Positions 38,612 through 41,262 of a stretch of DNA of 64,000 nucleotides are shown piece after piece (positions within the stretch are counted from its first letter, which is position 1; each line of letters begins with the position of its first letter). The DNA lies in the NCBI GenBank assembly GCA_963845185.1, contig CAWJRG010000001.1, forward strand, positions 256,001 to 320,000, in the 5' to 3' direction. Both the position numbers and the translations under genes were made by a program. The notes under the pieces are model-generated. The model saw nothing but the letters and a program-made list of their open reading frames with translations, had not been told where the DNA came from and searched no databases. Source of the DNA: an uncultured bacterium. Lineage in GTDB: Bacteria; Oederibacteriota; PGYV01; CAWJRG01.

Positions 38612-38709
38612 TATAAAAGTTTATTTTGCCAAGCAGGCAAATGCGCAGGTAAAATATTACTTTTATATATCCCCGGTCAAGTCCTTTGCCTGCAAAGGAC
38701 GAGCGGGAT
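38612..38709 (-). promoter_or_regulatory. Shared two-hairpin leader motif upstream of atpA
   Basis: ATCCCG-CTC-GTCCTTTGC..GCAAAGGAC-TTGAC-CGGGGAT then AAAAGT-AA-TATTTTA..CAAAATA-A-ACTTTT then AAAGGAG. Confidence 0.6.
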
Positions 38710-38712
38710 TAA

Positions 38713-39348
38713 TTATTTTTTCTTTTTCTTTGCTTTTTTAACAGTCTTTTTTGCCGATTTTGCCTTTGCGGCCTTTTTTGCAGTCGGCCTTCTCGCCGGT
38801 TTTACTGCTTTTACTTCGTATAATTTCGTTTTCAGCGACTGTAAAAACTGTTTTAAGCTGCCGTCTATAAGGTTGAACCTGTCCCTTATTATAATGCCTC
38901 CCAGTATGTCAGGGTTAACTTCGGTTTTTACTTTCAAAGTACTGTGCATTTTTTTCTCAAGTTCTTTTATAAGCCTGTCCCTGTCTAGCGTGCTCAAAGG
39001 ATAAGCTGTCTCCATTGTTATTTTCCTTATCCCAGCGTCCTCGTCAGCCATTTCAGCGAATATATCGCATATATCATAGAATATCTTCTCCCGTTTTTTA
39101 TCCACTACAAGGCACAAAAAATCAAATGAAAGCTTTGATATATCTTTCGAAAATATTTTTTTCAAAATATCCTTTTTTTCATCCCTGTTTATGCCCGGAT
39201 GGTAAAAAACATCCTGAACGTTAACGTTGTTTTTCATGAAAATCTCTATTGCCTTCAGGTCTTCTTTTACAACCTGCAGACTGTTTTGCTCTTTTGCAGC
39301 CTGAAACAGCGCCTCCGCGTATTTTGACGGGAGTACCAGGTTTCCCAT
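38713..39348 (-). CDS. atpH: ATP synthase F1 delta with Lys/Ala-rich tail
   Basis: YAEALF, ILGGIII..IDGSL; operon position. Confidence 0.92.
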   Translation of the reverse strand: MGNLVLPSKYAEALFQAAKEQNSLQVVKEDLKAIEIFMKNNVNVQDVFYHPGINRDEKKDILKKIFSKDISKLSFDFLCLVVDKKREKIFYDICDIFAEMADEDAGIRKITMETAYPLSTLDRDRLIKELEKKMHSTLKVKTEVNPDILGGIIIRDRFNLIDGSLKQFLQSLKTKLYEVKAVKPARRPTAKKAAKAKSAKKTVKKAKKKKK

Positions 39349-39350
39349 TT

Positions 39351-39842
39351 TTAATTCACCCTTTTCTCAATATCTTTTAAATAATTTTTGATTATCCCCA
39401 TCTGTTCCTTGCTTCCCACTTTTTTCTTTATGACCTTTTCAGCGACCATTATGGAAAGTTCCGCTATCTTATCCTTAACGCTTCCTATTGCCCGTATTTT
39501 CTCCGCCTCTATCTCGCGTTTTGCCTCGTCGATTAATTTCGCGCCTTCCTTATGCGCTTCTTCAGTCATCTGCGACTTGATTTTGTCGCCTTCGGCCACC
39601 GCTTTCTCGAGCGCGCTGCTTGATTTTTGCTCTATTTCTTTAAGGCTTTTTTCGTATTCCAGCTTCATTTTCTCAATGTCGGCTTTGTCTTTCTCGATTT
39701 TGTCAATTGATTCCCTGATAAAATCGTCTCTTTTCTTTAAGGTTCTGGAAAGCGCCTTTATAAAAAGAATCCATACCAGTGGCATTGCGATTAAAAAAGT
39801 AATTATCTGCGTTAAAAATACCGGCCAGTTTATCTCTACCAT
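39351..39842 (-). CDS. atpF: ATP synthase F0 b
   Basis: N-terminal TM then long coiled coil; operon position. Confidence 0.9.
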   Translation of the reverse strand: MVEINWPVFLTQIITFLIAMPLVWILFIKALSRTLKKRDDFIRESIDKIEKDKADIEKMKLEYEKSLKEIEQKSSSALEKAVAEGDKIKSQMTEEAHKEGAKLIDEAKREIEAEKIRAIGSVKDKIAELSIMVAEKVIKKKVGSKEQMGIIKNYLKDIEKRVN

Positions 39843-39914
39843 AGTAAACCTCCAAAATTCAAGTTTGCGTAAGTTGTTTCCATGAGTCCAAGCGGAGCTT
39901 TCGCCCCGCGTTTT

Positions 39915-40289
39915 TTAACTGATAAAAAATGCCGAGAACGGATTTGCAAAAATAAGTATCAGCCCTATAACAAGCGCATAAATCGTAAGGGATTCGATAA
40001 AAGCAAGTCCAAGGATTAACATAGTCTGTATCTTGCCTGCTGCTTCAGGCTGTCTTGCAAGGCCCTCAGCAGCCTTTGCAGTAGCCATTCCCTGTCCAAG
40101 TCCGCATCCAAGTGCCGCTAATCCAACTCCGAGCGCTGCTGCCAATACCGTAAAAGCGAAGAAATTTACGCTCTCGTTTGTCGCTTTTTTAACTGCCGGC
40201 GCCGCAGCCGATGTTTCGGCAGCAAAAGCCGTGCCGACAACCGCAACAACAATCAAAACCGCCATCAACAAAGTAACTATCCTTTTCAA
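39915..40289 (-). CDS. atpE: ATP synthase F0 c with signal-peptide-like extension
   Basis: [18 protein letters not shown]; likely TTG start at 40289 after AGGAGG. Confidence 0.95.
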
Positions 40290-40349
40290 ATCTGCACCTC
40301 CTGTTTTTAATTTCAATTTTTATATTTTATTTTAATTCCCTGTTTTTAT

Positions 40350-41147
40350 TTACCGCGCATGCTCTTTGCTGTGTTCATCCTCTCCATGATGAGCCGCCAC
40401 TGCGCCTGCAAGGTATATTGATGTCAGCAGAGCAAAAACGCCTGCCTGAATAATACTTACTAGTGTTCCTAACACTATAATAAGCGGCCTTAAAAGGAAA
40501 GCAAAACCACCTATTAGTCCGGCAATTACTCTTTTCAGAATTTCCTGGTTACTCAAGTCAGGCCAGAACATTAAAACCAACAACACAAGCACGCCTAATA
40601 GAATTTCTTTTGCAATTAGATTTCCGAAAAGCCTGAAAGACAGTGACAATGGTCTGGATATGTCTGAAAGCATTTCAACAAAAAACATAAAAGGCTTTAA
40701 AGGCCCTGGTATACCCGGCCCTCCTGTAAAGTGCGCAAAAAATTTAATAGGCCCTACTTCAATAATGCCTGAAATCCAATACCAAAAAAATACCATTAAT
40801 GCGAGCGCTACAGTAACGGACAGGCTTGACGTTGGCGATGTAAGACCAGGTACAAGCCCAATAAAATTGCCTATTAAAATATAGAAAAAAATCATTACTA
40901 TAAGTCCATAATATTTTGGCGCTTTCTCCCCTATTATGGAGTCCGCGGTATCAGTGATATATTTGACCGTCCATTCCACAAGGTTCTGGGCTTTTTTGGG
41001 TTTCATTTTTGGATTTACTGACCCTAACGCGAATATAATAAAAATAATAAGATAGTCAAGCAGCATCATTAGTAGTATTGTAAAATAATGGTCATCAAGT
41101 CCAGGTATAAATGATTTGAATTCTATGGCTTCTTTTATTCCAGTCAT
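40350..41147 (-). CDS. atpB: ATP synthase F0 a
   Basis: RPLSLSFRLFGN, IQAGVFALLTSIY. Confidence 0.95.
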   Translation of the reverse strand: MTGIKEAIEFKSFIPGLDDHYFTILLMMLLDYLIIFIIFALGSVNPKMKPKKAQNLVEWTVKYITDTADSIIGEKAPKYYGLIVMIFFYILIGNFIGLVPGLTSPTSSLSVTVALALMVFFWYWISGIIEVGPIKFFAHFTGGPGIPGPLKPFMFFVEMLSDISRPLSLSFRLFGNLIAKEILLGVLVLLVLMFWPDLSNQEILKRVIAGLIGGFAFLLRPLIIVLGTLVSIIQAGVFALLTSIYLAGAVAAHHGEDEHSKEHAR

Positions 41148-41161
41148 TACTTTGTCTCCTT

Positions 41162-41262
41162 AGAATCCGTTGATTTTGCCTAGTGTCAACAGCAAAGGCA
41201 AAATCTTACGGAATCTTGCACCCAATCCAGTCCGAGGCTACTAATCCGAGGACGAGCGGTGC
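41162..41262 (-). promoter_or_regulatory. Shared two-hairpin leader motif upstream of atpB (overlaps the end of atpI)
   Basis: GCACCG-CTC-GTCC..GGAC-TGGAT-TGGGTGC then CCGT-AA-GATTTTG..CTGTTGAC..CAAAATC-A-ACGG then AAGGAG. Confidence 0.6.

Follow-up and report, generated by a model that had tools for sequence, protein, structure and literature searches.

Two-hairpin leaders of atpB and atpA in an uncultured Oederibacteriota bacterium belong to a lineage-specific, modular family of about 100 nt

Copies in the window

We analysed a 64,000-nt stretch of DNA (below, the window) from an uncultured bacterium (GTDB lineage Bacteria; Oederibacteriota; PGYV01; CAWJRG01), namely positions 256,001 to 320,000 of the forward strand of contig CAWJRG010000001.1 in assembly GCA_963845185.1. 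In this window, a two-hairpin element lies before the ATP synthase genes atpB and atpA, before a ParB_N-domain gene and, in reduced form, before a gene interrupted by a group II intron. An earlier interpretation made from the letters alone (the sequence-only reading) had regarded it as a leader RNA of these four genes, possibly a ligand sensor, that tunes F0 versus F1 expression. We find instead a modular, lineage-specific family of ~100-nt units, of which the atp leaders are ordinary examples. This genome (the host genome) carries about 150 copies, and most of them lie in the sense of the following gene and end 0–3 nt before its Shine–Dalgarno (SD) sequence.

The window was scored, with filters off, using a covariance model (CM) R1 derived from 43 copies of this genome; five matches were counted, and three further rows at E ≥ 0.06 were left out of the count. 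All five are on the minus strand, the sense strand for these genes, and the two-hairpin architecture reported at all four places is confirmed both in the sequence itself and by the R1 matches. Read in sense, the layout is hairpin 1, a short linker (AAG, ATG or UAAG), hairpin 2, 0–3 nt, the SD and the start codon; the window copies stop 0–3 nt 5' of AAGGAG, AAGGGGAGG or AGGGAGG.

The atpB copy (41162..41263, minus strand; R1 87.2 bits, E 1.7e-17) is situated between an AtpI-like open reading frame (ORF) and atpB, whose product matches Pfam ATP-synt_A (2e-50). Its hairpin 1 (approximately 41218–41262) and hairpin 2 (approximately 41163–41215) are both present in the minimum-free-energy (MFE) fold, with the SD free and a z-score of -2.08. 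The native SD AAGGAG (41156–41161), the spacer and the ATG (41145–41147) of atpB, that is, 41145..41161 on the minus strand, are outside the repeat. The atpA copy (38612..38710, minus strand; R1 89.1 bits) fills the space between the atpH stop codon (38713–38715) and the SD of atpA, whose product matches ATP-synt_ab (1.3e-82). Here hairpin 1 (approximately 38670–38708) folds, and hairpin 2 (approximately 38615–38664) is weakened by an A–C mismatch and absent from the MFE fold (z -2.50).

The third full copy (16732..16831, minus strand; R1 95.3 bits, E 2.8e-19) stands directly 5' of the SD of the ParB_N-domain gene (ATG 16713–16715; ParB_N score 28.3 bits at a cut-off of 26.3) and has a predicted fold of -50.3 kcal/mol (z -6.02). 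It is preceded by a lone extra hairpin 1 (16848–16882), a partial R1 match to model positions 6–39 (23.3 bits, E 0.0027), together with a remnant of the 3' half of a hairpin 2, GGCUUGGCAAAACAAAUUGAU (jointly 16829..16882, minus strand), so that the entire leader is a composite of the form H1 / H2-remnant / H1 / H2. The string AGUAGCCUCGGACU, said to be common to the atpB copy and the first hairpin 1 of the ParB leader, is indeed present in both. The fifth match (13911..13998, minus strand; R1 49.9 bits, E 3.3e-9) adjoins the SD of the intron-interrupted gene and retains only hairpin 2 (approximately 13911–13968); its hairpin 1 is degenerate, and an unrelated small hairpin stands in its place. 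The apical sequence CUGUUGAC occurs in three of the four copies and not in that of atpA, as had been noted.

The element matches no known RNA family, in agreement with the sequence-only reading. At the gathering thresholds of Rfam 15, the window yielded only the group II intron models RF02005 and RF00029 (13108–13859); between 38560 and 41320, with E-values up to 10 admitted, there were three matches of 17.6–20.4 bits, far below the thresholds of 44–50; and 11 loci of relatives gave none. In the literature on intergenic repeats, Shine–Dalgarno-linked hairpins, REP2 and this lineage we found no description of the element, and in PMC7031533 the word "repeat" is confined to the methods text. Read in the sequence, none of the four window copies has a terminator between element and gene, and a scan for sigma-70-type promoters in the atp region returned 8 against 9.7 expected, which is not above shuffles.

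The intron itself occupies 13108–13859 of the window on the minus strand, with RF02005 scoring 106.3 bits at 13626–13859 and RF00029 scoring 49 bits at 13108–13194.

Family size, placement and structural constraint

The host assembly comprises 3.5 Mb in 11 contigs. Simple patterns detect from 69 (strict) to 116 (looser) hairpin-1 cores in it, and a hairpin-1 pattern with 87 genome matches has none when reversed. With nhmmer, 159 hairpin-1 and 159 hairpin-2 matches were obtained at E < 0.01, and the covariance model gave 145 matches at E ≤ 0.001, with just 150 candidates scored. Since these matches precede unrelated genes throughout the genome, the element is not restricted to atpB, atpA and two accessory genes, as had been proposed. 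The copies are distributed over 7 of the 11 contigs. An integron attC cassette array was considered and rejected, as the copies are not clustered but spread over these contigs; no search was made for intI.

As regards placement relative to genes, an ORF of at least 60 codons starts within 60 nt downstream, in sense, of 116 out of 159 hairpin-2 matches, 99 of them with an SD-like motif, and the start codon lies 9–13 nt past the model end in 87 of those 116; the antisense control gives 34 out of 159 with an ORF and five with an SD. A stricter classifier assigns 98 of the 159 hairpin-2 matches to SD plus ORF, 13 to a next unit, two to a terminator-like hairpin and 46 to other contexts. Thus, the genome-wide check for copies in random orientation or without relation to ribosome-binding sites does not refute the RNA interpretation, and the description of a conserved, structured sense element ending at the ribosome-binding site holds. 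Copies occur within operons as well as behind longer gaps: where the upstream neighbour is on the same strand, the gap between it and the element is under 30 nt in 13 out of 62 cases. In the locally rarer orientation we find 14 out of 174 copies, compared to 306 out of 2436 long ORFs, and at least six of these 14 copies are followed by an SD and an ATG.

The downstream genes are functionally mixed. Among 40 drawn at random from 97, 33 have Pfam matches, in differing families; downstream families include ArgG (argininosuccinate synthase), PGM (phosphoglucomutase), IlvD, GcvH, MetRS, NuoB, L3, PFK, HtrA, and MerR. Signal-peptide-like N-termini are not enriched downstream (31 out of 97, with a background of 824 out of 2492).

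The core of hairpin 1 can be written as RYACC-N-CUYGUC...GACUKGARCGGGURY. The pairing stem described by the sequence-only reading exists, while the G of its "CCG" varies genome-wide (G/A/U/C), and the outer stem is better given as RYACC / GGGURY. Hairpin 2 consists of a covarying outer stem of 7–9 bp, a UAA(U)/AA(A) internal loop, a UUUUGYC/GRCAAAA inner stem and a variable apex. The internal-loop nucleotides are invariant in 43 out of 43 copies and are retained in other families. A WAG trinucleotide stands at each module border of the canonical copies (...AAG|YACC, GGGUAY-AAG, ...AUC-AAG|GAG), and about a dozen canonical copies are preceded by the last 10–15 nt of a hairpin 2 (AAAYGAUAUCA).

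The sequence-only reading had pointed to outer stems that differ in sequence and keep pairing. Such compensatory changes are seen both within the genome and across ten other genomes. In a MAFFT alignment of the 43 copies, which was not fitted to the model, 95.3% of pair cells are standard, compared to 80.3% in shuffles (0 out of 500 reach the observed value), with two-sided changes in 150 cells, compared to 44 in shuffles; slid controls of the same alignment are 33–46% paired. In an alignment of 34 distinct copies drawn from ten other genomes, paired cells make up 94.5%, compared to 70.6% in shuffles, and 21 out of 25 pairs show double changes; this alignment was fitted to the model and hence leans towards the model structure. 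The cleanest evidence of compensatory change comes from orthologous loci. At the radC–TPR locus of four species, the hairpin-1 core is kept, the hairpin-1 apex differs in each species yet pairs, and the outer stems of hairpin 2 are GTGCGAG/CTCGCAC, GTTAGAG/CTCTAAC, GTGTGAG/CTCACAC, and GTGCCAG/CTGGCAC; a second orthologous pair has GTGGCTG/CAGCCAC versus GTGCCAG/CTGGCAC. Between nearest neighbours, differences per site amount to 0.086 in stems and 0.089 in internal loops, compared to 0.205 in apices and 0.204 in linkers, the median pairwise difference between copies being 0.30. Compensating changes maintain stems and internal loops at all three levels, namely, among the copies of the host, between genomes and at orthologous loci.

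At the same time, the family behaves as modular, copyable DNA, with lone hairpins, remnants, arrays, nested modules and modules inserted between hairpins. The largest array (contig C9, 916430–917180, minus strand) contains seven full head-to-tail units of 100 bp and an eighth with an insertion in hairpin 2 (7.5 units); it is preceded by a GATAAT box, has no SD or ORF directly after it and could give rise to a multi-unit RNA. In all three full window copies, hairpin 1 and hairpin 2 have different nearest neighbours. The flanks are unequal: the 5' flank of 77 canonical copies is A/T-rich and otherwise not conserved, and the 3' flank is purine-rich, being AAGGAG in the host genome and A6–A10 in relatives. 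Hexamers resembling a -10 box end 0–4 nt before 33 of these 77 copies, compared to ~2.3 per offset elsewhere (~3 times background).

Three further sequences are associated with the copies. A second repeat of ~75 nt (GGGTAG...ACTACCCGTCAAATAGTCCACAGGACTATTTGAC) sits inside the apex of hairpin 2 in some copies and inside that of hairpin 1 in others, with eight strict matches and looser variants (e.g., C5:574675-574771, C9:551381, C9:677830). A module of ~80 nt (CTTGACAGAGTTTGATTTTGCAAGCGTCAACAG...CATGGAG) is found between hairpins 1 and 2 in seven places, always right after ...GAGCGG (e.g., C9:19097, C10:695805). Finally, a AAGTTTTCAATTTTCAAT-like sequence recurs after gene-less copies (C5:32876, C5:35447, C9:671519, C9:676622, C9:656568, C1:208425) and may be another recurrent module.

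Relatives: empty atp junctions and stand-alone units

The order is represented by 24 genomes in the collection, none of them in the family or genus of the host. To compare the atpH–atpA junction, the 20 best AtpA loci were taken and 18 relatives with the full junction on the contig were counted, the locus L076, a nineteenth, being cut 35 nt before the ATG. In 18 out of 18 relatives, the distance from the atpH stop codon to the atpA ATG is 12–50 nt and the junction is free of the element. The junction between the AtpI-like gene and atpB is likewise short and element-free in 18 out of 18 relatives examined; this count leaves out L094, L097, and L099, presumed to lie near contig ends, though the coordinates of L097 leave room for the junction. 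At both atp junctions, nhmmer matches the host sequence alone. The SD and spacer of atpB read AAGGAGACAAAGTAATG here and AAGGAGACAAGGTAATG at the element-free junction of one relative (G003), and that junction ends in ...AAAGGAGACAAGGTAATG, where the sequence 3' of the element here is TAAGGAGACAAAGTAATG; therefore, both SD and spacer are native to atpB, with the element immediately 5' of them. Both atp copies are insertions peculiar to the host lineage, and the atpB copy was placed just 5' of the native SD.

The AtpI-like ORF (41241–41636 of the window, minus strand; no Pfam match at 1e-5) continues for seven codons within hairpin 1, where a TAG belonging to the element ends it. Therefore, the insertion replaced the native C-terminal end, so that here the element has reshaped a protein's C-terminus.

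The atp copies are not recent, since the nearest other copies in the genome are 85% identical to the atpB copy and 79% identical to the atpA copy. We also scanned metagenome AtpA sequences for filled and empty sites at the strain level. The best match was 80% identical, and hence there are no close strains among these matches; in the 80 loci concerned the model finds no elements.

According to the covariance model, the family is present in 11 out of 24 genomes of the order, with 145 matches in the host, 17 in G014 and 1–6 in the others. In a sister family (f10; genera g13 and g14, genomes G014, G019, G020, G023) its context is different. Out of 25 matches there, 20 have an A-run and then a GC-rich hairpin behind them, with at least four T in the seven bases after 11 of these hairpins; another unit comes next in four matches, something else in one, and an SD with an ORF in none. 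In this family, the two hairpins are thus succeeded by a GC hairpin, usually with a T-run, in place of the SD. Upstream, a TTGTAT-16-TATTAT arrangement is conserved before three f10 loci, and an A/T-rich box of the -10 type (TATTATA-like), identified by eye, adjoins most copies of G014 and G023. With this layout, the f10 units look like a small-RNA gene family, sometimes with two or three units in tandem (G014).

In a genome of another family (G001), three out of three matches adjoin an SD and an ORF, as in the host. Of two G001 genes with the element that were compared, one has no homologue in the host and the host homologue of the other has no nearby copy (n = 2). At the radC–TPR locus, where the element is present in G014 and G019, the host gap is just 150 nt and contains no model match.

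Several observations concern the relatives themselves. The radC–TPR intergenic region of G019 (L046, 982–1663; L053, 1358–1744) is ~680 nt long, and the part that precedes the element looks structured (e.g., GTAGCCGCAGCCTTCAGGCTGCG...GGTTGCGGCTAC), with no Rfam match in this region; the terminator-like hairpin after the element at radC–TPR is near-identical in four species, loop included. Stand-alone f10 copies of G014 and G023 (L301–L311, L056, L063) carry CUCCUC, the complement of the SD, in the apical part of hairpin 2 (…GCAAGCUCCUCAAAGC…), and host copies of the leader type lack it in the hairpin-2 apex; f10 units with CUCCUC might act in trans on ribosome sites. In genus g10, weaker model matches (L048, L049, L051, and L059 of G021, G009, and G017) have a common downstream sequence, TACATYGCCATTCCRCC..., and probably represent a single orthologous locus, belonging to a remoter relative of the module. 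Beyond the order, the hairpin-1 pattern, which is too loose for this wider collection, marked at least 104 stretches in the collection contigs; 80 were made into loci, nearly all single chance matches in unrelated taxa, and on these the model confirmed L239 (two copies), in addition to two weak rows at E 0.002 and 0.007.

Interpretation and alternatives

The explanation that we prefer, with a probability of roughly 0.55, is a lineage-specific module acting at the RNA level, a small-RNA-like gene in one family that has spread in the host as a folded leader before native ribosome-binding sites. The element would act as RNA of the sense strand. The stand-alone unit would be a small RNA; placed before an SD, the same unit would form a self-contained folded 5' or intercistronic module that keeps the ribosome site open and may guard the mRNA downstream of it against 5' decay or processing. 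A common putative factor would dock on the invariant loops of the two hairpins, and the purine-rich 3' flank (AAGGAG, or an A-run in relatives) points either to a preferred target or to selection for the junction. The likely effect is generic, namely, an insulated, protected 5' or intercistronic segment with a shared docking site, and in the atp operon the copies would do no more than uncouple or stabilise the atpB-... and atpA-... segments.

Action as sense-strand RNA is favoured by the gene-like layout in f10, the fixed sense position at ribosome sites, the minority-orientation counts and an SD predicted to be somewhat more open. In 97 leaders with the element, the SD has a predicted unpaired probability of 0.54, compared to 0.45 in 300 control leaders (p 0.004). 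A census of tetraloop types on the two strands showed no clear difference.

A number of observations weigh against the RNA-level module. The predicted effect on SD accessibility is small. Genes are ~85% co-oriented per replichore, and hence orientation relative to genes is largely confounded with the direction of replication. G–U pairs make up 16 out of 1872 pair cells in the stems, with raw counts of 16 G–U and 58 A–C; without three stem-end pairs, which account for 46 A–C cells, the counts are 13 and 12, and G–U is not favoured over A–C. This is unlike most functional RNA families and fits a Watson–Crick constraint, possibly at the DNA level. With RNA parameters, the antisense strand folds slightly better in 54 out of 72 copies, a difference that is not significant with DNA parameters. 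The slower change of stems could also reflect repeated copying from a few intact master copies. In the relatives, the A-run that precedes the next hairpin varies less than the T-run behind it, and the f10 hairpins may terminate convergent genes and not the element. The -10-like boxes are so near hairpin 1 that a start 6–8 nt downstream would remove the outermost covarying pairs.

The main rival, which we consider unlikely while ranking it ahead of the other alternatives, is a selfish, non-autonomous DNA element (MITE-, PATE- or REP-like), whose hairpins would be recombinase or transposase sites and whose target would be a purine tract (AAGGAG or an A-run); the asymmetric target would set both position and orientation, and any RNA effect would be incidental. 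Many features of the family fit this explanation: its modular, mosaic build, with differing nearest neighbours of hairpins 1 and 2 in the full window copies, the lone hairpins, remnants and tandem arrays of 100-bp units, the ~75-nt module nested in the tip of either hairpin, the lineage-specific insertions at native SDs of the atp operon, the purine-rich 3' flank in both contexts, and the lack of preference for G–U over A–C. As in IS200/IS605 ends, their gene-less derivatives (PATEs) and REPs with RAYT, there is a hairpin at each end, there are no terminal inverted repeats, placement is strand-specific and one flank is compositionally constant. However, in contrast to these systems, the host genome (99.4% complete) has no Y1 transposase or TnpB-type domain matches: Y1_Tnp (PF01797) gave none among 10 candidates scored, and the TnpB-type domain PF07282 none in this genome, which has the most copies of the element. 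Y1_Tnp is found in 15 out of 24 genomes of the order, and its presence does not track that of the element. These data speak against a Y1 transposon for the host genome. Unlike in IS200/IS605, moreover, no fixed tetranucleotide was found at the 5' flank, the constant flank being the 3' side in gene sense. A selfish origin also has to account for the lack, in 77 copies, of terminal inverted repeats and of consistent target duplication, for the age of the copies (given the divergence among them, and an identity of the atp copies to any others of at most 85% and 79%), for compensatory change at orthologous loci and for the unpaired nucleotides that stay invariant across families. Were it to act as DNA, the element would be mobile and would have the Shine–Dalgarno tract as its unusual target.

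Another possibility, in our opinion rather improbable, is a post-transcriptional regulon operator: a single RNA-binding protein would read the invariant loops before more than 100 genes, and arrays and stand-alone copies would be decoys, by analogy with Csr/Rsm. In Csr/Rsm systems, leader sites next to the SD of many mRNAs are combined with decoy RNAs, CsrB/RsmZ, that carry the motif in tandem. The likeness is one of architecture, namely, a structured motif next to the SD of many mRNAs together with tandem-motif units, and the unit here is a 100-nt two-hairpin module, unlike the GGA hairpin loop of Csr/Rsm. The invariance of the internal loops in 43 out of 43 copies and their retention in other families, the fixed distance to the SD, the 7.5-unit head-to-tail array in the host and the arrays of two or three units followed by a hairpin in G014 are consistent with an operator. 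On the other hand, there is no candidate binding protein (no search was made for one), the downstream genes lack functional coherence, including a share of signal-peptide-like N-termini that equals the background, and just two or three leader-type copies are present in the other genomes examined. In an extended version, the element would serve as an address tag in a post-transcriptional network spanning the whole lineage: a single factor would read the loops, more than 100 mRNAs, including the two atp segments, would be tagged at the ribosome site, stand-alone and array small RNAs would titrate the factor, and the tag would spread via its own transcript; this would account for units that extend from a promoter-like box as far as a purine tract. 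We hold this to be a long shot, slightly less probable still than the operator proper.

A dedicated F0/F1 regulator, that is, a riboswitch-like cis-RNA sensing a ligand or an ion and balancing F0 and F1 expression, is largely refuted: the atp operon does have a copy at each of its two main junctions and the internal loops are strongly conserved, but the element is missing at both junctions in the 18 relatives examined per junction, copies precede unrelated genes with no coherent gene set, there is no expression platform, no SD-hiding alternative fold was found for the atpB and ParB copies (the SD is predicted to be unpaired in both the MFE and the centroid fold), hairpin 2 of the atpA copy is degenerate, and in family f10 no gene follows the element. 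Such a regulator is not supported because the atp copies are lineage-specific insertions, are not recent and, at atpA, include a weakened hairpin 2. Of the suggestions of the sequence-only reading, the F0-versus-F1 tuning is not supported and the ligand sensing is unlikely, and local copies of such a family, as in the atp operon, should not be annotated as gene-specific regulators.

Dispersed bacterial repeats usually lie after genes or in either orientation. A family of around 150 folded units at most 3 nt from ribosome-binding sites, in sense, is rare, the more so with a small-RNA-like gene form in a sister family. If acting as RNA, the preferred explanation, the element would be a natural portable leader or insulator, possibly with a very large regulon in an uncultured lineage.

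By description, the nearest analogue is REP2 of Neisseria (reviewed by Delihas, 2011; PMC3184786). As described there, REP2 and the Borrelia plasmid repeats IR-A/IR-B are multi-copy intergenic repeats of ~120–180 bp without terminal inverted repeats, with two internal stem-loops, in fixed orientation immediately 5' of unrelated ORFs, where they form the 5' untranslated region; REP2 has its own promoter, ribosome-binding site and ATG, and exists in ~26 copies (PMC3184786). The element shares with REP2 and the Borrelia repeats, so described, a dispersed distribution and two internal stem-loops immediately upstream of ORFs. It differs from that account of REP2 in that the SD at atpB is the gene's own, in that copies also lie inside operons with no room for a promoter (the 13 out of 62 same-strand gaps under 30 nt), in its larger copy number (~150) and in the existence of the module with a terminator-like hairpin in sister genomes.

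BOX of Streptococcus pneumoniae and ERIC/IRU of enterobacteria can be likened to the element as modular, folded intergenic repeats, from which it differs in its fixed position and orientation. BOX (with its boxA-B-C modules) and ERIC/IRU are co-transcribed, can alter the stability of neighbouring mRNA, are found in either orientation and are not known to be linked to ribosome sites. The mycobacterial interspersed repetitive units (MIRU) are repeats of 40–100 bp between operon genes, in operon orientation, which contain small ORFs overlapping the stop and start codons of their neighbours and are not known to be strongly folded. Unlike MIRU, the element follows no ORF logic and ends before the SD.

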